Shown here piece by piece: positions 374 to 36,385 of a stretch of 36,679 bases of DNA. The stretch covers positions 1 to 36,679 of the forward strand of contig JAXMNT010000068.1 of the NCBI GenBank assembly GCA_034670305.1, read 5' to 3'. The notes under the pieces were generated by a model that had not been told where the DNA came from, made no database searches, and saw nothing but the letters and a program-made list of their open reading frames with translations. Numbering within the stretch: position 1 is the stretch's first letter; every line of letters starts with the position of its first letter. Position numbers and translations under genes: made by a program. This stretch comes from Deltaproteobacteria bacterium (GTDB lineage Bacteria; Myxococcota_A; Polyangia; Polyangiales; Houyiibacteriaceae).

Positions 374-415
374 GGCCGCCAGTCTCGCGAAGCGAGCCAG
401 GCCCGTATTGGCAGT
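374..415 (+). repeat. REP-like GAA-loop hairpin, copy 1
   Basis: GGCCGCCAGT-CTCGC-GAA-GCGAG-CCAGGCCCGTA; the copy at 11536-11576 has the compensatory stem CCCGC-GAA-GCGGG. Confidence 0.7.
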
Positions 416-423
416 GAGAATTG

Positions 424-453
424 AAAAACGCCCCGCACCGAAGTGCGAGGCGT
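424..453 (-). terminator. Intrinsic terminator of the RRM gene
   Basis: Minus strand reads ACGCCTCGCAC-TTCG-GTGCGGGGCGT-TTTT, about 20 nt after the stop at 476. Confidence 0.8.
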
Positions 454-475
454 CGTTCGATGTCTCGAAAGAGAC

Positions 476-784
476 TTACCAGCGGCCACCGCGGTCGCGG
501 TCACGACCGCCACCACCACCGCCGCCGCCGCCGCGCTGGCGGTCCTGGGCCTCGTTCACGTTGAGCGTGCGGCCATCAAGCTCCGCACCGTTCATCTGCT
601 CGATGGCCTCGTCGGCCGCCGCAGCGTCCGCGAACGTCACGAATCCGAATCCACGACTGCGACCGGAGTCGCGGTCGGTGATCACTTTGGCTTCGGTCAC
701 TTCACCGAACGCTTCGAACGCTGCACGGAGTCCGTGATCGTCCGTGTTCCAACTCAGGCTGCCCACAAAAAGCTTCTTCGACAT
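476..784 (-). CDS. RRM (RNP-1) RNA-binding protein with Gly-rich tail
   Basis: RNP-2 LFVGSL, RNP-1 RGFGFVTF, MNGAELDGRTLNVNEA and a poly-Gly tail. Confidence 0.95.
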   Translation of the reverse strand: MSKKLFVGSLSWNTDDHGLRAAFEAFGEVTEAKVITDRDSGRSRGFGFVTFADAAAADEAIEQMNGAELDGRTLNVNEAQDRQRGGGGGGGGGRDRDRGGRW

Positions 785-797
785 CACATTTCTTCAA

Positions 798-897
798 TCT
801 GGCACCCCCGAACTGACTCGTCACGAACCCCCACAAAAGGTGAGAGAAGCATGACGCCGCAGCAGCCGACATGGCTGCTTGGCTCGGGGACGTCAGA
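798..897 (-). promoter_or_regulatory. Putative structured 5' leader of the RRM gene
   Basis: Nested stems on the minus strand: TCTG/CAGA, CCCCGAGC/GTTCGGGG, GCAGCC/GGCTGC, CGTCATG/CGTGACG, CTCTCAC/GTGGGGG. Confidence 0.5.
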
Positions 898-1014
898 CCT
901 ATCTTGACTGTACGTCCCGAAACCACTGCGATGGTGCCGTGGGCGCTTCATGCGCCCCACAACCGCCGACCGCAAGGAGAAACCGTGCCCGGGAGGCGAT
1001 CTATGTGTCGAGAA

Positions 1015-1611
1015 TCACGATCCTTCTGCCTCTTTCTTCGATGAAACGTCCTCCCCGGCCTCGAGCGGCTCCAGGTCCTGGTCCTCTTCGGCCTCCACCC
1101 GCACCTCGAGCCCAGCCGCCACGGTGCCCTGGAGTGCAGCGGCGAGACCCTCCGGGTCCTTGGCCGCGACCACGCAGGTCTTGATCGATCGACCGCGCCG
1201 AAACCTCACCCGCACCCCGCGGGTGGCCCCGGGGTAGATGTAGCGCCAACCGTCCGGCCAGATCTTCGGGCCCACCGCCAGGCGGGTGAGCGCGTCGAGG
1301 GTGATGACCTCCACGGACTCGATGTCGCTCAGCGCGATCGTCGGGCCGATCGTGCCGTACTGCACCCGCAGCTCGGTGTCGGTCACGAGCACCCGCATGG
1401 CGGCGAAGTAGAGCGCGGCCCCCGAGGTCGCGACCGCCCCCGCGGCCATCGCCGCCGCGCCCGCCATCTCGCCTTGCACCGCCAGGACAACACCGGCGAC
1501 CGCGGTGACCAAGCTCGGGATGCCCAGCAGCGCGGCGAAGATCTTGGAGACGTGCTTCTCGCGGAACACCGCGGACTCGCCGTCCATGTAGTCGGTCTCG
1601 TAGTCGCCCAT
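1015..1611 (-). CDS. Small membrane protein (two TM helices plus a bacterial PH-like domain)
   Basis: Starts MGDYETDY 2 nt after the upstream stop; two hydrophobic segments, then VLVTDTELRVQYG...IALSDIESVE, typical of bPH domains; acidic tail. Confidence 0.7.
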   Translation of the reverse strand: MGDYETDYMDGESAVFREKHVSKIFAALLGIPSLVTAVAGVVLAVQGEMAGAAAMAAGAVATSGAALYFAAMRVLVTDTELRVQYGTIGPTIALSDIESVEVITLDALTRLAVGPKIWPDGWRYIYPGATRGVRVRFRRGRSIKTCVVAAKDPEGLAAALQGTVAAGLEVRVEAEEDQDLEPLEAGEDVSSKKEAEGS

Positions 1612-1613
1612 CG

Positions 1614-3170
1614 CTACGCGACCAGGGGCGACGTGGGGAGTTCTTCGAGGTGCACGGTGGTCTGTTTCCCCGAACGGGAGACATCGACGACCGCGAGCTG
1701 GGTGCCGGGCAAGAGCAGGTACTCGTCTTCCTGCTGGTAGCAGCTGTACCGTTTCACGCTGACGGCGCGGCTGGAGTGGACCTCGAAAAGGGTGCGGGCG
1801 CCGGATCCCAGAAAGCCCTTGGCCACCGTCAGGCTCGGCGTGCACGACGACACGCCCCACCAAGTCACCGTTTCGCCTTTGGGGTACTGGGTGCGCAGAT
1901 CGAGTGCGACGCCGCGGTAGAGGGTGCCGGTGAACGACTTGAGCTTCTTCAGCGCTTCGAGGAAGAGCCGGAGGTACGGGAAGTACGGCTCGGCGCGCAC
2001 GCGCTTCGGATCTCGGAGCGTTTCGTTGAGTCTCCGATAGAGCGGCGACTGCGTCGTGTAGAGGTAGAGCGCCGCGACTTCGTCGACGCTCAGGCCCATC
2101 CGGTTCTTGAGCTCCGCGCCGAACTTCAACGACATCTTCACCGGGTGCACGAGCCCCTTCTTCAGCAGCGCCGCGACCGGAGCGATGGCATCGGCGAACG
2201 GGAGCAGCGGGAGCGCGCCGATGCCGGTGATCGGACCGAGCGCCTCGGCGACGATGTCCTCGACGTCTTGGAGGCGCTCCAAGTACGTCTTGTGGAGATC
2301 CATCGTGGTCGCGATGAAGTCGCCCATGCGCGTGGCTTCCGAACCGGCGGCTGCGTTCCACCCGACCTTGGGCAACCAATCGATCGGCGTCATGCCGAGC
2401 TTCTGCAACGCCTCGTTGATCACCCCGAAGTGTGGGTCCCCCTTGCAGAACGCATCGCCCATCGCGGCGGGGTTGCAGTGGTCGATGTGGGCGACGCGGG
2501 CGTCGGGAAACTTCTTCGCGAGCGCTTCCACCATCGGGCGGAGCTTGCGCGCATGGGCGCCCCACCACGCGAAGACGACGCCTTCTTTGTTCGCGTGCTT
2601 CGCCGCAAGGATCTCGCGCACGATGCGCTGCACCACCGGCTTCCAGAACCCGGTGTGCTGCGCGGTCGACATCGCATCGTCGCTGTTGGCGGTGAGCGAG
2701 GCGTTGAGCAGCAGCACCCCCTGCGTGAGCATGCTCTGGAACCACTCCGGCGGTTGAACGATCTGTTCCTTCGCCAGCAGCGCCCGGATGTCGGCGGTCT
2801 TCGTTTTCACGTCGATGCCGAACTTCTGAATGCAGGCCGCCTTCAGGATGCACCGGATGGACGTCACCCGACCGAACGTCGGCTCCTTCCAGTGACCGAA
2901 CGCGTTGTCGAACATCGCGATGCCGGTCGCGGACTCGACGCGTGGGTACGGGTTCTGTCCGAACGCGACCACCCGCCACTTGCCGGGCGGGTTCGGTTTG
3001 AGCGCCTGAAACGTGAGCTCGCGGACCGGCACCACCGACGGCCCACGACTTGGCCCGATGAACTGCGCCGCGCCCGGCTGCGCTTCGATGGTGGGCTTCA
3101 GAAGCGGCAGCCACGCTTCACCACCGCCTTCGAAGAGCGGCGCCAGTTCGAGAGGATCGTCGTTCGACAT
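1614..3170 (-). CDS. Uracil-DNA glycosylase-fold domain fused to an ARTC-type (R-S-E) ADP-ribosyltransferase
   Basis: N-terminal VVAFGQNPYP, QGVLLLNASLT, VFAWWGAHA and HCNP match UNG family-1 motifs; C-terminal LYLYT...LYRRLN...LYRGV...GVSSCT...QEDEYLLLPG matches ART motifs. Confidence 0.85.
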   Translation of the reverse strand: MSNDDPLELAPLFEGGGEAWLPLLKPTIEAQPGAAQFIGPSRGPSVVPVRELTFQALKPNPPGKWRVVAFGQNPYPRVESATGIAMFDNAFGHWKEPTFGRVTSIRCILKAACIQKFGIDVKTKTADIRALLAKEQIVQPPEWFQSMLTQGVLLLNASLTANSDDAMSTAQHTGFWKPVVQRIVREILAAKHANKEGVVFAWWGAHARKLRPMVEALAKKFPDARVAHIDHCNPAAMGDAFCKGDPHFGVINEALQKLGMTPIDWLPKVGWNAAAGSEATRMGDFIATTMDLHKTYLERLQDVEDIVAEALGPITGIGALPLLPFADAIAPVAALLKKGLVHPVKMSLKFGAELKNRMGLSVDEVAALYLYTTQSPLYRRLNETLRDPKRVRAEPYFPYLRLFLEALKKLKSFTGTLYRGVALDLRTQYPKGETVTWWGVSSCTPSLTVAKGFLGSGARTLFEVHSSRAVSVKRYSCYQQEDEYLLLPGTQLAVVDVSRSGKQTTVHLEELPTSPLVA

Positions 3171-3245
3171 CTCCCGTTCTTACCACCCCGCGGGCAGCAT
3201 CGGCTTCGGGATCCGGGATCGGGATCCACCCCGGTTCACCCAACC

Positions 3246-3437
3246 GCGGGCAAAGGCAAGGGCAAGGGTCTGCACGTCCGCGGTGCGGTTCGCGGTTCTG
3301 CGGTTCTGCGGTTCTGCGGTTTTGGAGCTCCCTTGCCAGCGCCAAAGGCGCGATGCCCTTGCCCTTGCCCCTGCCCGCCGTGCGGTTCTGCGGTCCTGCA
3401 GCTCTGTGGTTCTGCAGCTCCCTTGCCAGCGCCAAAG
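3246..3437. repeat. Composite intergenic repeat
   Basis: Inverted GGCAAG tracts (3246-3268 and 3356-3378), GCGGTTCT octamer runs, and AGCTCCCTTGCCAGCGCCAAAG present twice (~3326 and ~3416). Confidence 0.75.
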
Positions 3438-3523
3438 CAAACAAGCCCCGGCGCGCACAGTCGATCATCCAGGCGGCGCGCGTTCAGCTCCTGCCCCGCC
3501 CCACCTCGCCTTCGGCTCGGTGT

Positions 3524-5443
3524 TCAGGTGGTTTGGAGGACCACGGTGCGATCGGGCGCGCCGGCGTCGAGTTTGACCCAGAGCAGTCCGTCGGCGTCGA
3601 CGAACCAACCCGTGGCCGCCGCATCGAACGCGGCACGGTCGACGTGGGGCGTCGCGGCCGAGCCGTCGATCGTCACCCCGGTCACGACTTCGGCGACGCC
3701 GAGCGCCACCCGCAACCTCAGCAGGAACCGCTCGTCCGCCGCCGCGCCTTGAATCGCGAACCCTCGGGGTTCCGCGACGAGCGCGGCCGTCGAGTCGTCG
3801 GCATCGGTCGCGCCTTCGCGGTGAAGCGTGAACGACGAGTCGCCCGCGCCGACCGAGGGCAACCAGGACGCGATGGTCAGATGACCCGCCGACGCGGCGT
3901 TGCCGAAGCCGGTCACGTCGGAGTCGATCTCCATCGGCACCACGGCGCCTTCGCGGACGAAGATCGGGATGCGCGCCTGGTCGGTCGCACCGGCGTACGC
4001 GGCGAGCGTCGTGCCGCCGGCGACGGCTTCACCGGACCACCAGTCGTACCAACTGCCCGACGGGAGCTCGACGTCGCGCACGCCGCCCGCTTCGAGCACC
4101 GGCGCGACCAGAATCGTGTCTCCGACGAGGTACCGCCAGTCGCCGGCCCACTCGTCCACACCCGCGCCGATGGGATGCACGACGGTGTCGGAGGCCGCGT
4201 ACGCGTCCTCCGACAGGCTGTACCAGAACGGCACCATCTCGTGATGCAGCGTCGCCCAATAGCGGTAGAGCGCGATGGTCTCTTCGGTGCGCTCCTCGAT
4301 GTTCCACGGCTCGAGGTTCGCGCGGCCGTGCAGCTGGAAGAACGGCATCATGCCGCTCATCGCGACCCAGCGCGCGAACACTTCTTGGTCGAACGGGATC
4401 GTCACCAAGAGATCGTCCTGGTCGCGATCCAGGTACCCGCCGATGTCGCTGCCGATCACGACGTAGCCGGCCTGCGCCGACCGGAAGGTGTGGTCGAGCG
4501 CGTCGACGAGCCCGTCCCAGTTGCGGTGGTTGTCGCCGGTCCACGCGACCGGCGCGTGTTCCGGTCGCGCGTAGAAGCGGGCCGGCACGTCATACGAGAC
4601 GTCGTAGGGCCGGACCATCGTGACGAACTCGCGGCCGCTCCGATGCACGCCGTAGCGGAGGAAGTCCGCGTAGTAGAGCTCGCTGTATTCCTGCAGGGTG
4701 TGCACCCCGTCGGCGGTGTCGATCGTGTCGTCGTAGGAGTTCGGTGCATCCCGGATGTAGCTCTCGCCGAAGTCGAGTTTCCATCCGTCCACGCCCATCG
4801 CGAGCAGGTCGTCTTGCTGGCGGCGCCACCATTCGGCCGCGACCGGATTGAAGAAATCGAGCGCGGCGCCGCGTCCCTTCCACCAGGGGTAGAGCCGCCC
4901 GTCGTTGACGTAGAAGCCGCAGGCCTTGCCCTCGAGGTAGTTGGACGCGGGACCGCGGTAGGCATCGCCGCCGACCTCGGCATCGAAGGAGGTCAGGTTG
5001 ATCATCTGGGTGGTCCAGAGCACCAGCCGAATGTCCTGCGCGTGCAAGTCGTCCACGAGCGACTGAAAGTCGCCGTAGCGTTCCGGGTTCGGAATCAAAG
5101 TGTTGTACGAAGTCTCCCAAGGAGAATCGAGCACCACCGCGCCCACCGGAATGCCTCGGTCGAGAAACCCAGCGACGAACGCTTCGGTGTCCGCGCGGTC
5201 GGAGATGTCCTTGCTGATCCAGGGCTCGAACGCCCAGCGCGGCGTGTGCCGGGCCGGGTCGGGCAGCACCTCCGCCTCGTCGGTGAAGTCGCAGCCGGGA
5301 CCGGCGTCGGCACCCGCATCGAGCGGTGCATCCAGGGCCGCATCGCTCCCGGCGTCCACCACGGCATCGTCGTCGCCACACCCGGGTCCGAAGACTCCGA
5401 GTGCGACCACGACCCACCCGAGGATGCGCGACTTCGCGTTCAA
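3524..5443 (-). CDS. Glycoside hydrolase family 31 lipoprotein
   Basis: Lipobox-like GPGC-GDDD, GVDGWKLDFGE nucleophile motif, WTGDN, GSDIGGY, YLVGDTILVAPV and IPIFVREGAVVP; TTG start. Confidence 0.9.
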   Translation of the reverse strand: MNAKSRILGWVVVALGVFGPGCGDDDAVVDAGSDAALDAPLDAGADAGPGCDFTDEAEVLPDPARHTPRWAFEPWISKDISDRADTEAFVAGFLDRGIPVGAVVLDSPWETSYNTLIPNPERYGDFQSLVDDLHAQDIRLVLWTTQMINLTSFDAEVGGDAYRGPASNYLEGKACGFYVNDGRLYPWWKGRGAALDFFNPVAAEWWRRQQDDLLAMGVDGWKLDFGESYIRDAPNSYDDTIDTADGVHTLQEYSELYYADFLRYGVHRSGREFVTMVRPYDVSYDVPARFYARPEHAPVAWTGDNHRNWDGLVDALDHTFRSAQAGYVVIGSDIGGYLDRDQDDLLVTIPFDQEVFARWVAMSGMMPFFQLHGRANLEPWNIEERTEETIALYRYWATLHHEMVPFWYSLSEDAYAASDTVVHPIGAGVDEWAGDWRYLVGDTILVAPVLEAGGVRDVELPSGSWYDWWSGEAVAGGTTLAAYAGATDQARIPIFVREGAVVPMEIDSDVTGFGNAASAGHLTIASWLPSVGAGDSSFTLHREGATDADDSTAALVAEPRGFAIQGAAADERFLLRLRVALGVAEVVTGVTIDGSAATPHVDRAAFDAAATGWFVDADGLLWVKLDAGAPDRTVVLQTT

Positions 5444-7221: not shown

Positions 7222-8688
7222 TCAGCCTGGTTCGGTGGGGTGGGCGAGCACGTGTTTCTTCACGGTGCGCCGGTCGAGGCCGGTGATCTGCGCGACCTGT
7301 TCGTAGGTCCCGTGGACTGCGTAGAGCTCCGCGCAGTACCCGGCGAGCAACGCCGCAGCGCTCAGGTTCTTGTCCGCCAGCGCACCGAACGCGTCCGGCC
7401 CTGCGCCCCGGGCGCCCGCCACCGGGTCCGGCGCGCAGCGTCCGGTCAGAAGCACCGAACGCACCGTCTGTTCGAGCTCCCGCACGTTGCCGGGCCACCC
7501 GTAGTCCGCGGGCAGGTCCCGCGCGATCGCCTCTTCGACCAGCCCTTCCAAACTTCGTTCCCGCTCTCCGACGATGCGCTCGATCAGCACCCCGAGCAGG
7601 TCCTGCAGTTCGCTCGCGTCTTCCCGAAGCCGCTGCTGCAGCGTCGGCACCCGCACCACGTGCGAACAGAGCCGGTAGTAGAAGTCGTCGCGAAACCGCC
7701 CTTCCCTTCGCAGGTCGTCGATCGATCGGTGGGTCGCGGCCACGACCCGCCCCGCGAACCGCTTCTCCACCGCCGAGCCCACGGGAGAGAACGTGCGCTC
7801 TTGCAGCACCCGCAGCAGCTTCACCTGGGTGTGCGGCGCGATCTCTCCGATCTCGTCCAGGAAGAGCGTCGCGTGGGCGCCGCATCGGCCGAGCGCGCCT
7901 TCGCGGCTTGCGATCGCACCGGTGAACGCGCCGCGTTCGTGGCCGAACAGCGCGCTCTCGAGCAACGTCGCGGGCACCTCGGCCAAGTTCAGTGGCACGT
8001 GCTGCGCCACGAACGGCATGCCGAACCCGTTGCCCTTCGCGTTGAGTGGCACGAAGCCACTGCGTCCGAGCGCCGCGGCCGCCGCGCCTTTGCCGCAGCC
8101 GGTCGCGCCCAGAATCATCGTCGAGAAGTCTTCGAGCCGATCCCAGAGATGCCGTTCGTAGCGGCGCACGTCGTGGGTGAACACCGCGTTCCACAACGCT
8201 TCCCGCAGACTGCGGGTGCATCGGCTGCGGCCGACCAGCCCACTCGCGATGAAGTGGTACGCACGGCGGAGCTGCCAGAAGAGTTCGAGCGCGCGCTTGG
8301 TCCGGTCCGCACGAAATCCATGGCGCGCGAGCCACGCGGAGATCTCATCGGCCGCTTCGAAGGGCGCGGTCTCTCCGGACTTGAGCTCGATCGCGATCTG
8401 GGCGTCGAAGGGTTCGGCGAAGCGGTGAAACGCGTCGAAGAGGATCGCGTCTTCCACGACCTGGGCGTCCGCCCGGGCGAAGTCCTTCGGCCGCTGGCTA
8501 GGGAGCGCGTCGAGCGTGCTGCGCAGCCGCGCGATCACCGTGGGCACGACCTCGGGGTCGTCCGGGTCGAGGCCCGCGACCTCGGCATCGAGCTGCCAGC
8601 GTTCGTCCCCGAACGGGTTCGTGAACGCAGCGCGGGAGATGCGCTCCAGAAGCGCTCGAACCTCAGGGCTCAGGGCAAAAGAGGGCAT
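7222..8688 (-). CDS. Sigma54-dependent activator (bEBP) with an unrecognised N-terminal domain
   Basis: Walker A GATGCGKG, intact GAFTGA, Walker B LFLDEIGE, FRDDFYYRL, WPGNVRELE and a C-terminal HTH; no receiver domain is recognisable. Confidence 0.92.
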   Translation of the reverse strand: MPSFALSPEVRALLERISRAAFTNPFGDERWQLDAEVAGLDPDDPEVVPTVIARLRSTLDALPSQRPKDFARADAQVVEDAILFDAFHRFAEPFDAQIAIELKSGETAPFEAADEISAWLARHGFRADRTKRALELFWQLRRAYHFIASGLVGRSRCTRSLREALWNAVFTHDVRRYERHLWDRLEDFSTMILGATGCGKGAAAAALGRSGFVPLNAKGNGFGMPFVAQHVPLNLAEVPATLLESALFGHERGAFTGAIASREGALGRCGAHATLFLDEIGEIAPHTQVKLLRVLQERTFSPVGSAVEKRFAGRVVAATHRSIDDLRREGRFRDDFYYRLCSHVVRVPTLQQRLREDASELQDLLGVLIERIVGERERSLEGLVEEAIARDLPADYGWPGNVRELEQTVRSVLLTGRCAPDPVAGARGAGPDAFGALADKNLSAAALLAGYCAELYAVHGTYEQVAQITGLDRRTVKKHVLAHPTEPG

Positions 8689-8693
8689 GCCTC

Positions 8694-8714
8694 GATGTAC
8701 ACGAGATGTGCATC
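8694..8714. promoter_or_regulatory. Palindromic operator or enhancer (UAS)
   Basis: GATGTACA-CGAGA-TGTGCATC (1 mismatch from a perfect palindrome); a similar site lies at 34134-34150. Confidence 0.65.
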
Positions 8715-8785
8715 CGGTGGTCAACGATTGCCGATCTGCCGTGCGTATCACACGAATTGTTCAATGATTTCAGCAGGCTCGAAAC

Positions 8786-11576: not shown

Positions 11577-11956
11577 TAAAGAAGCTGAAGGGTGACGCGG
11601 ATGGTCCAGTCGGCTGGGGCGCGGTCGATGCCCGACACCACCGCACCCGCGTCTCGGACGACCACCACATCCCCCGAGTGCAGCACGAAGCGGTACTCTT
11701 GCCCGTCCACGACGATCGCTTGCAGCCGCCCGAGCGCGTCGTGTTTGAGGCCGATCACCCGGCAGCGGATCCGATGCCGCGGTCGGTCGAGTGCGGTCGC
11801 CATCACGACGAATCCACCCGAGGGCGCGGGGAAGGGTCCGCGCACGTCGAAGTCGCCTTCTTGGCCGTGGGCCACGCTCTGGTCCTGGCCGAACCAGCGC
11901 GGCGCCCAAAACGCCTCGAAGACCTGCACACCCGGCGGCGGATTCGACGTGCTCAT
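11576..11956 (-). CDS. Hypothetical protein
   Basis: ATGA overlap with the helicase stop; normal amino-acid composition. Confidence 0.65.
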   Translation of the reverse strand: MSTSNPPPGVQVFEAFWAPRWFGQDQSVAHGQEGDFDVRGPFPAPSGGFVVMATALDRPRHRIRCRVIGLKHDALGRLQAIVVDGQEYRFVLHSGDVVVVRDAGAVVSGIDRAPADWTIRVTLQLL

Positions 11957-35483: not shown

Positions 35484-35712
35484 GCGGAAGCGGTCGCGGT
35501 CGCGGAAGCGGTCGCGGTCGCGGTCGCGGTCGCGCGGTCGGAAGCCGACGCCGAACCTGACGCCGACGCTTGAAGCCGAAGCCGAGGCCGAAGCCGAGGC
35601 CGAAGCCGAGGCCGAAGCCGAAGCCGAAGCCGAAGCCGAAGCCGAAGCCGAGGCCGAAGCCGAGGCCGAAGCCGAGGCCGAAGCCGAGGCCGAAGCCGAG
35701 GCCGAAGCCGAG
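35484..35712. repeat. Hexamer arrays (GCGGTC/GCGGAA)n then (GCCGAR)23
   Basis: Directly visible; 35575-35712 is 23 units of GCCGAA or GCCGAG. Confidence 0.92.
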
Positions 35713-35734
35713 GCCCGCGACTCGCGCGGGCCTC
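35710..35734 (-). terminator. GC-rich hairpin just after the four-helix-bundle stop
   Basis: GAGGCCCGCG-ACTCG-CGCGGGCCTC; no U-tract, so termination is not certain. Confidence 0.4.
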
Positions 35735-35743
35735 GCGCCGCTC

Positions 35744-36055
35744 CTAGTGACTCAGCCGGTACAACATCGCGCAGACCTCATCGCAGCGACCGAACACCTC
35801 TTCGCTCACGTCTGCGTATCCGAACAGCCGCACCAACCGAAGAGCCGCCTTCAGTTCGCTCGCCTCACCGTAAGCAATGGAAAACCTATCCACGCTCCGC
35901 TTCCCGCGAGCGTTCTTCGCTTCCGCGCAGTTCAGAACGACGGACTGAGCCGCCCGCCGCATCTGCTCACCCAGCGAACGGTCCTTGCGAGAAACAGCCG
36001 CCATCACCCCGCGCAACTCACCAACGAGAACCAAACTAGATTCGAGAACAATCAT
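35744..36055 (-). CDS. Four helix bundle protein (23S rRNA IVP / Avd-like family)
   Basis: LGEQMRRAAQSVVLNCAEA...RFSIAYGEASELKAAL matches the family signature Q..RA..S...NIAEG...F...A.G...E. Confidence 0.85.
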   Translation of the reverse strand: MIVLESSLVLVGELRGVMAAVSRKDRSLGEQMRRAAQSVVLNCAEAKNARGKRSVDRFSIAYGEASELKAALRLVRLFGYADVSEEVFGRCDEVCAMLYRLSH

Positions 36056-36069
36056 CAGAGCCTCCTCGC

Positions 36070-36385
36070 GCCGGAAAGAGTGAGCAACGTTGCTCGGCGG
36101 CGCGGAGCGCCCCCCGGTGGAGAGCGCAGGGCGGGTCAAGGGCGAAGCCAGCCTTCCGAAGGCTGGGGCCGAAGGCACCCTTGACGCGACCGAGCACTCC
36201 TTTGCTGAGGGGATGGGACATCCCCTCCGACCTGCGGGGCAAGCCCCTCCGGTCTCCTCCCAATCTGGGCCACGATGAAATTGCCGCCGAGCCAGCAGGC
36301 CCCCCCGCCAAGTCACTCCAAGTCCGAAGGACGCAGGAGCCGACTTCCGAAGGAGAGGCTATAAACCGCGCGACTCCGAAGGAGA
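36070..36385. other. Hairpin-dense non-coding region upstream of the four-helix-bundle gene
   Basis: GAGCAACGTTGCTC; GTCAAGGG...CCCTTGAC enclosing GAA-loop hairpins; GGGGATG/CATCCCC; GGGGC-AA-GCCCC; TCC-GAA-GGA three times. Confidence 0.65.

Follow-up and report, generated by a model that had tools for sequence, protein, structure and literature searches.

What might a bacterium do with a protein that carries the fold of a uracil-DNA glycosylase (UDG) and an ADP-ribosyltransferase (ART) in a single polypeptide chain? The question is raised by a gene encoded on the minus strand at positions 1614–3170 (stop codon included) of contig JAXMNT010000068.1, from a deltaproteobacterium of the order Polyangiales (GenBank assembly GCA_034670305.1). 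The whole 36,679-nucleotide stretch analysed here is named the window. The gene is a single intact open reading frame (ORF) of 518 codons, coding for a 518-residue protein, and its GC content by codon position (0.64/0.45/0.88, the last value being the third-position content, GC3) is typical of real genes in a window of 65–71% GC, indicating that it is coding. We propose with moderate confidence that its UDG-like half is a pseudo-glycosylase which, when DNA is damaged, directs a reversible ADP-ribosylation to targets associated with DNA.

The N-terminal domain (residues about 14–270; nt 2361–3131, minus strand as for all segments of this gene) is a family-1 UNG-like domain predicted to be catalytically inactive. 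Its best match in the Protein Data Bank (PDB) found with HMMER is the UNG of Nitratifractor salsuginis (5x3g, E 5.3e-15, residues 14–222), followed by classical UNGs, and five NCBIfam UNG equivalog models match it below threshold (47.8–73.1 bits versus cut-offs of 143–237). The C-terminal domain (residues 355–511; nt 1638–2108) is an R-S-ExE ART recognized by Pfam PF01129 (E 4.5e-15, 56 bits versus a gathering cut-off of 22.3); its residues 360–508 match the type VI secretion system ART Tre1 (6dre, E 4.9e-4) and also the Vis toxin among PDB sequences. In the AlphaFold2 model they are joined by a linker of two long helices (residues 277–303 and 325–353; nt 2109–2360) whose portion from about residue 295 on is part of the ART module as seen in other proteins. 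This model, for which 36 homologues were the input, has a mean pLDDT of 86 and a pTM of 0.59, values that make the single domains confident and their mutual orientation not. Searched with Foldseek, each half finds its expected fold. The N-terminal half matches 5x3g and 5x3h (TM 0.71–0.74 normalised by target) and further UNGs from M. tuberculosis, herpes simplex virus 1 (HSV-1) and other sources, showing that the UNG alpha/beta fold is present; the C-terminal half matches the R-S-E ARTs Vis, Tre1 (TM 0.80), XopAI, HopU1, ExoS/T, C3 and rat ART2.2. The union of a family-1 UNG scaffold and an ART domain, noticed in a preliminary description made from the sequence, is thus borne out by HMMER against the PDB, by Pfam and by Foldseek, and the 1143 homologues retrieved at E ≤ 1e-3 by a word-indexed search (8000 candidates scored) place the two-domain observation beyond chance.

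Does the UDG-like domain still remove uracil? In UNG, water is activated by the Asp of GQDPY; the HPSPLS loop contributes a His, which stabilises the uracil as it leaves, and a Leu, which wedges into the duplex; the Asn of LLLN reads uracil and a Phe stacks on it. The motifs listed for this protein in the preliminary description (GQNPY, HCNP, YRG, SSCT and EDE) were all located at the expected residues. GQNPY (residues 71–75; nt 2946–2960) replaces GQDPY, with Asn73 encoded at nt 2952–2954, and HCNPAA (residues 231–236; nt 2463–2480) replaces HPSPLS. In the HMMER alignment to 3uf7, Ala235 takes the place of the Leu wedge, Asn233 and Ala236 those of the two Ser, and Ala205 that of the Ser in the WGSHAQ loop. 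Met86 occupies the position of the stacking Phe according to a manual reading of the motif-A region, made with no tool alignment. LLLN is present (nt 2703–2714), its Asn156 being aligned to the uracil-recognising Asn of UNG (HMMER against the PDB, family alignments). In an alignment of 30 sequences GQNPYPR, N156, R419, S441–T444, E481 and E483 are all invariant. In an extended alignment of 36 fusion sequences, to which distant full-length members were added, every one of the 36 proteins has N, S or A at residue 73 and none has D; the motif-B His, retained in the window protein, varies among distant members. Set against the hallmarks of family-1 UNGs (motif A with Asp, motif B with His and Leu, an equivalog-level score), the domain has an Asn, a His accompanied by Ala, and scores under the cut-offs. 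It is predicted to be a pseudo-glycosylase in which the fold, the uracil-recognising Asn and some of the contacts to the DNA backbone survive. As position 73 is never D while the ART residues are invariant, the alignments indicate that glycosylase chemistry was lost early and family-wide and that the transferase is strictly conserved. This agrees with the earlier suggestion of a non-catalytic UDG domain coupled to an intact ART; the alternative voiced at the same time, base excision coupled to ADP-ribosylation, is at odds with the lack of the general base across the family.

An ordinary active repair UNG with an extra domain, or a degenerate remnant, would be in keeping with the label 'uracil DNA glycosylase' given to homologues by some sources and with the lack of a canonical TIGR00628 UNG elsewhere in the source genome. 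Both versions are scarcely credible, as the Asp is missing in 36 of 36 proteins and the scores fall far under every UNG equivalog cut-off, and, for a remnant, as the frame is intact and conservation among 29 aligned homologues (59–96% identity) is strong along the whole length. The Nitratifractor enzyme itself, the closest match in sequence and in fold over residues 14–270, shares the GQxPYPRxESAxG form of motif A but keeps the Asp (GQDPYPR) and stands alone, whereas the protein studied here has an Asn and is fused to an ART.

The ART half carries YRG (residues 418–420; nt 1911–1919) with Arg419 of the R-S-E triad, SSCT (residues 441–444; nt 1839–1850), a motif of S-x-S type, and EDE (residues 481–483; nt 1722–1730), which is the ExE of the ARTT loop. 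R419, G420, S441, S442, E481 and E483 are invariant in the 36-sequence alignment. The domain is predicted to be intact and most like the arginine-specific protein ARTs; ExE ARTs typically modify Arg. It resembles R-S-ExE mono-ARTs such as Tre1 (6dre), Vis (4xzk), ExoS/T, HopU1 and vertebrate ART2.2 in fold, triad and Pfam PF01129 score, but those are secreted, injected or ecto-enzymes while the fusion protein appears cytoplasmic, is joined to a UDG domain and is paired with a Macro-domain protein (see below). The similarity to Tre1, Vis, ExoS/T, HopU1 and XopAI is what speaks for a toxin of the polymorphic or effector kind, secreted or injected to act between cells. We hold this to be very improbable. 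No hydrophobic signal-like stretch was seen by eye in the sequence of the N-terminus, MSNDDPLELAPLFEGGGE, matching the absence of a signal peptide noted in the preliminary description, and no PAAR, Rhs, WXG or other trafficking domain was found by Pfam or in the sequence. Tre1 is said to be countered by an ARH-type immunity protein; no ARH-type immunity gene adjoins the fusion gene. The actinomycete promoters described below, moreover, predict regulation together with intracellular DNA-damage genes.

The fusion occurs well beyond the source genome. The best 120 matches all have 98–100% query coverage and 58–96% identity. Named sources comprise Myxococcota, Gemmataceae, Streptomyces, Kitasatospora, Nonomuraea, Dactylosporangium, Nocardia, Actinomadura and others, and the names given to homologues are limited to 'ADP-ribosyltransferase domain-containing protein', 'uracil DNA glycosylase' and 'NAD(+)--protein-arginine ADP-ribosyltransferase'. 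Relatives are encoded by at least 543 stretches in a collection that represents each species by one genome. They occur in Myxococcota, Actinomycetota, Planctomycetota and Acidobacteriota at about 60% identity, and protists have relatives too. When 50%-identity representatives were searched exhaustively with HMMER, 4400 matched at E ≤ 1e-3 and 129 of these at E ≤ 1e-30; 30 of these relatives were scanned with Pfam and 10 looked up by name. The full fusion is preceded by an N-terminal WWE domain in an Amoebophrya protein (P0146), by a vWA domain in P0122 (1051 aa) and by a long stretch without Pfam match in P0125 (873 aa; marine eukaryote transcriptome record only). The Asp-less UDG-like domain is also found without ART, fused to Ser/Thr kinases, in P0176 (Thecamonas trahens) and P0203, both with GQNPY. 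The ART module (from residue ~295) recurs in eukaryote-type architectures with WWE-ZZ, WW, LRR, tyrosine phosphatase and PARP domains, and a Paulinella protein (P0263) has the order BRCT-SAP-WGR-PARP_reg-ART. GQDPYPR is kept in seven of nine short stand-alone relatives (P0166, P0185, P0217, P0221, P0248, P0204, P0225), the other two (P0163, P0188) having GLAPYPR; P0172 is a short Asp-less piece. Substitution of the Asp thus seems mostly to track fusion to a signalling or modifying domain, as expected if the domain became a binding module. Among the 120 homologues listed, PF01661 occurs in six and a histone-deacetylase domain in one. Two further architectures were noted: histone deacetylase-UDG-ART (P0082, 862 aa) and SAM-domain-UDG-like (P0143, in a record labelled archaeon).

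Which genes travel with the fusion gene? Eighty-five loci were fetched and their genes called with a GC3-based caller, an imperfect one that missed the window gene at 1015–1611. Clustering of the neighbours yielded one recurrent family, a Macro-domain protein of ~225 aa (Pfam PF01661). Its arrangement was classified by tblastn, independently of gene calling. The Macro gene lies directly upstream on the opposite strand in 54 of the 85 loci (67–386 nt between matches), is fused in frame to the N-terminus of the fusion protein in 11, is on the same strand and unfused in three, and lies about 7 kb downstream in one (L004, from a Holophagales genome). It is absent from 11 loci whose upstream sequence extends for 900 nt or more, all of them from myxobacterial or other metagenome-assembled genomes, and five loci were too short to tell. 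The source genome (G000) belongs to those that encode a Macro ortholog elsewhere: it is unlinked, at positions 11,585–12,373 of contig C67 (59% identity to the Gemmataceae protein, E 2.9e-79). In G064, another Polyangiales genome, the two genes are 1.8 Mb apart.

Co-occurrence was followed in 61 genomes (the source genome and 60 relatives) and in 101 Streptomyces genomes. Four of the 61 have the fusion gene (G000, G012, G030 and G051, the last with two copies), and an ortholog-level Macro gene (E < 1e-80) is present in those four (twice in G051) as well as in G004 (93% complete) and G059 (91% complete); this amounts to 4/4 of fusion-bearing versus 2/57 of fusion-less relatives. The fusion gene was found in 19 of the 101 Streptomyces genomes and a full-length Macro gene in the same 19, always adjoining it. 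The Macro protein is a dedicated partner of the family, strictly co-inherited in Streptomyces. It is closest to yeast YMR087W (1njr; E 1.8e-8 for the source genome's copy, with a weak match for the copy of locus L011), and from these matches is classed as YMR087W type rather than DarG/TARG1 type. One fusion-less Streptomyces genome retains the C-terminal half of a Macro gene (residues 118–223; G132:C28:11170–11487) that looks like the remnant of a lost pair. The Macro protein of the source genome (L091, 6586–7374) differs from other aligned orthologues by a long acidic tail at its C-terminus that includes nine consecutive Gly; the Holophagales copy (L004) has a shorter acidic tail.

When the 54 divergent intergenic regions were read, TGTCAGTGG was seen, followed 7–8 nt on by TAnnnT, in both orientations. 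The PafBC consensus is given as tGTCgg(N10)tA(N3)T in the text available from PMC8635444; RecA-NDp is reported as the PafBC target motif in PMC6789036 and, in PMC5087735, upstream of the UV-inducible Streptomyces Macro gene SCO6735. The motif is predicted to be a PafBC/RecA-NDp promoter of the actinobacterial LexA-independent DNA-damage response. When counted as TGTC-N12-TAN3T, it is directed at the Macro gene in 44 of the 54 regions, at the UDG-ART gene in 26 and at both in 22, a density of 5.26 per kb to be compared with 0.018 per kb in the flanking DNA of the same loci and 0.065 per kb across 310 further intergenic regions from these loci (4 matches in 61,391 bp). The stricter pattern TGTCRGTG-N8-TANNNT is found exactly in 34 of the 54 regions, with 41 matches in 13.3 kb versus 7 in 884 kb of flanking DNA. 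All of 13 loci without divergent arrangement (11 fused, two same-strand) have a perfect TGTCAGTGG motif 61–82 nt upstream of the Macro start, and these sites count for the ART gene as well. Ten of the 54 regions lack the motif at the stringency used; they include that of the sole non-actinomycete, L009, and several Dactylosporangium loci with a very short spacer. Both genes are, on the basis of these sites, predicted members of the PafBC regulon in the actinomycete orthologues. Six loci (L027, L038, L072, L075, L077, L080) have longer spacers, of 340–394 nt, with extra sequence past the PafBC motif on the side of the fusion gene, which could be a leader. Five long-spacer loci and the window gave no Rfam match at gathering thresholds, and for window positions 1000–3600 there was no RNA holder on the list.

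The membership of both actinomycete genes in the predicted PafBC regulon means that the module most likely takes part in the DNA-damage response, and the Macro partner together with these promoters argues for a module whose ADP-ribosylation is reversible and linked to damage, more than for a simple toxic effector. The protein would be a cytoplasmic reader-writer enzyme whose N-terminal pseudo-glycosylase comes from the Nitratifractor-type branch of family-1 UNG. Loss of the Asp and of the Leu wedge would let this domain bind without excising, and the bound domain would direct the R-S-ExE mono-ADP-ribosyltransferase to targets at or near DNA with uracil or another lesion. The Macro protein (YMR087W type, encoded on C67 in the source genome) would remove or read the ADP-ribose, making the mark reversible. 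In actinomycetes the whole module would be switched on with the DNA-damage regulon, and it may serve the same role in this myxobacterium. As to the acceptor, the ExE motif and the structural neighbours speak for protein Arg, the Macro eraser for nucleic acid.

Several observations weigh against a damage-directed, reversible module. The uracil pocket is remodelled (Met86 for Phe, a varying motif-B His, Ala for the Leu wedge), so that binding of DNA or uracil by the domain is not assured. Arg-ADP-ribose is usually removed by ARH-type rather than Macro enzymes, and the chemistry of an ExE ART writer and a Macro eraser is therefore not obviously matched. The promoter evidence is restricted to actinomycetes; in the window no PafBC-type promoter was seen, nor would one be expected there, and no Macro gene neighbours the fusion gene and no DNA-repair operon surrounds it. 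The fusion gene is patchy in the genome sets described above (4 of 61 and 19 of 101) and, with about 60% identity kept across phyla, its distribution fits an accessory, horizontally moving gene, like defence genes. Finally, the partner Macro gene adjoins type XIII retron genes in the source genome, in the other Polyangiales genome and in the Holophagales genome.

The last two points, and the very pairing of an ART with a Macro protein, lead to an anti-phage or toxin-antitoxin-like system in which the ART would be a growth-arresting toxin checked by the Macro protein, as DarG checks DarT, and the dead UDG would sense phage DNA (uracil-containing or modified) or phage UNG inhibitors, possibly joined by the type XIII retron in some lineages. 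How close is the retron association? In the Holophagales locus L004, Macro heads an operon with WGR/HEAT_XIII, SWIM_XIII and RT_XIII genes and shares 4 nt with the WGR gene; immediately beyond the RT gene comes the fusion gene, so that the fusion, retron XIII and Macro genes are found inside 10 kb. On C67 of the source genome (L091, 6586–14,000; L108) Macro is followed on the same strand by genes for WGR/HEAT-ARM_XIII (850 aa), SWIM_XIII (563 aa) and RT_XIII, a Mx162-like type XIII cluster associated with Macro; in G064 the retron XIII genes are 5 kb from Macro, the distance being 1.3–5 kb over these two genomes. A HEAT-ARM_XIII-like gene follows Macro in the Gemmataceae locus. Among the 61 relatives the seven best SWIM_XIII scores (>595 bits) belong to the six genomes with an ortholog-level Macro and to one genome that is 56% complete. 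The link between Macro and retron XIII is real in three or four lineages. Retron XIII genes are absent from the window and are beside the fusion gene only in L004; the link is also absent in actinomycetes, where a weak SWIM match in Streptomyces G061 lies about 1.1 Mb off.

A vWA-UDG-ART relative (P0122) and the presence of the toxin of the Tre1/Tri1 pair among the closest ART structures also suit such a defence role, as do the accessory distribution and the retron neighbours. We nevertheless consider it unlikely, if the most serious competitor of damage-directed ADP-ribosylation. No PADLOC family, DarT models included, matches the fusion protein at E ≤ 1. Of 122 neighbouring proteins from 24 loci scanned with PADLOC, most have no match at E ≤ 1e-5; strong matches to defence models come from two loci, L030 (a type II methyltransferase, plus a mad2 match) and L004 (the retron XIII genes), and the others are weak or generic (RtcR-like activators; short stretches of GajB, LmuB, mad1, mad2, RTasPolA and MzaA). 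The defence-island location contemplated in the preliminary description has so far failed to appear. The genes are mostly divergent or fused rather than in a co-transcribed toxin-antitoxin operon, are unlinked in the source genome and G064, and have promoters of DNA-repair regulon type in actinomycetes. DarT-DarG is alike in coupling an ART to a Macro antagonist with a link to DNA, but its ART is of another clade and its genes form one operon, whereas here they are divergent, fused or unlinked and the Macro is YMR087W-like. Type XIII comprises the classical myxobacterial retrons (Mx162, Mx65), which are described in the portions of PMC7736814 at hand as largely vertically inherited and possibly domesticated with non-defence roles; the main text of that article has no occurrence of either Macro or ADP-ribosyl.

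A related proposal differs from damage-directed protein modification in its target only: the pseudo-glycosylase would hold a flipped or terminal nucleotide, the ART would modify DNA or RNA (a base or a phosphate end), and Macro would undo the modification in the way that DarG and TARG1 act on ADP-ribose linked to thymidine or uracil. It gains from the retention of a DNA-glycosylase scaffold with an invariant Asn156, and from Macro domains being established erasers of base- and phosphate-linked nucleic-acid ADP-ribose, according to the text available from PMC13036486 and PMC12945103. The ExE motif and the closest folds are nonetheless those of protein-Arg or protein-Asn ARTs, no structure of pierisin, ScARP or DarT is among the 50 best Foldseek matches of the fusion model, and the Macro is not of DarG/TARG1 type. 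We hold this proposal to be distinctly improbable. In a further conjecture, which we regard as doubtful, the Asp-less domain would be a lesion reader that captures a uracil or a damaged nucleotide turned out of the helix, either in the chromosome or, where Macro sits in a type XIII locus, in retron multicopy single-stranded DNA (msDNA); the ART would then mark the nucleic acid or the repair machinery there. Such marking would be damage-induced and reversible, like PARP1 signalling but with unrelated parts, and shared with protists.

Damage-directed, reversible ADP-ribosylation has a parallel in logic in eukaryotic PARP1 and PARG/MacroD, where a lesion-binding module is combined with an ART and a Macro-fold eraser, with induction or activation by damage, and ART relatives of the fusion family occur in BRCT-SAP-WGR-PARP_reg architectures. 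The parts are unlike: the ART is R-S-E and not H-Y-E, the sensor is a dead glycosylase instead of zinc fingers and WGR, and no poly-ADP-ribose is implied. SCO6735, a Macro hydrolase of Streptomyces, shares the PafBC-type promoter; in the sections of PMC5087735 available it is compared with TARG1 and no cognate ART is known for it, whereas the present Macro belongs to a different type and goes strictly together with the UDG-ART gene. A literature search found no publication on a UDG-ART fusion, in line with the preliminary description, which knew of no characterised protein of this architecture; comparative-genomics surveys of ARTs could still mention it. The parts are of known kinds, and it is the combination, the strict Macro partner, the predicted PafBC control and the protist relatives that appear undescribed. 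Little is understood about reversible ADP-ribosylation in the DNA-damage response of bacteria, SCO6735 being without known writer, and the present genes provide a candidate writer-eraser pair, co-inherited, found in about a fifth of the sampled Streptomyces species and in at least four phyla. If the proposal is correct, they would be a tractable bacterial counterpart of PARP-type damage signalling, would give the first function for a pseudo-glycosylase as a reader domain (kinase-fused too in eukaryotes) and would possibly link ADP-ribosylation to the classical myxobacterial retrons.

The surroundings of the gene in the window have little in common with those of its homologues. An ORF at 1015–1611 (minus strand), coding for a membrane protein of 198 aa with two helices that matches DUF3093 weakly (E 0.0024), has its ATG 2 nt past the stop codon of the fusion gene and is probably co-transcribed with it in the window. 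It was missed by the GC3-based caller because of an overlapping longer spurious frame, and was rejected as a partner since it is not conserved beside homologues. An RRM protein gene (476–787) and a GH31 glycosidase gene (3524–5443) are followed by genes for a secreted disintegrin/LTD protein, a sigma-54 activator (7222–8751, minus strand), an MFS-acyltransferase and, more distant, a UvrD helicase. None of the window neighbours recurs beside homologues, except RtcR/PspF-like activators found upstream in the myxobacterial loci L008 and L018; the one of L008 (4895–6307) scores 379 bits with the PADLOC RtcR_PspF2 CARF_AAA_HTH model. These activators motivated a scan for sigma-54 (−24/−12) promoters, which detected no site upstream of the gene, either in the window or in 12 non-actinomycete loci. 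A sigma-70 promoter scan of window positions 400–3700 gave 0 sites.

The intergenic stretch that lies upstream of the fusion gene (3171–3523), in which no promoter was recognised, is filled by a dispersed genomic repeat. Positions 3230–3450 hold two copies of a ~90-nt unit with GCAGAACC-type octamer runs and a GGGCAAGGG inverted repeat. The genome contains 48 matches to this repeat, including one a short way downstream of Macro on C67, and its dispersal led us to reject it as an operator. The same holds for the triple palindrome TGAACTC-N4-GAGTTCA in the Gemmataceae intergenic region, considered as an SOS-type operator: it is dispersed and adjoins unrelated genes, among them those for AcrB, an ECF sigma factor and a WD40 protein. 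It is found as tandem pairs or triplets at 7672–7983 of L009 and in 21 other places of the Gemmataceae genome G063, with 43 matches per strand versus 1 for a control pattern, and is probably a REP-like element. Near the contig end, the window also carries an ORF (35,570–36,184, plus strand) with a long PKPRPKPR low-complexity repeat.

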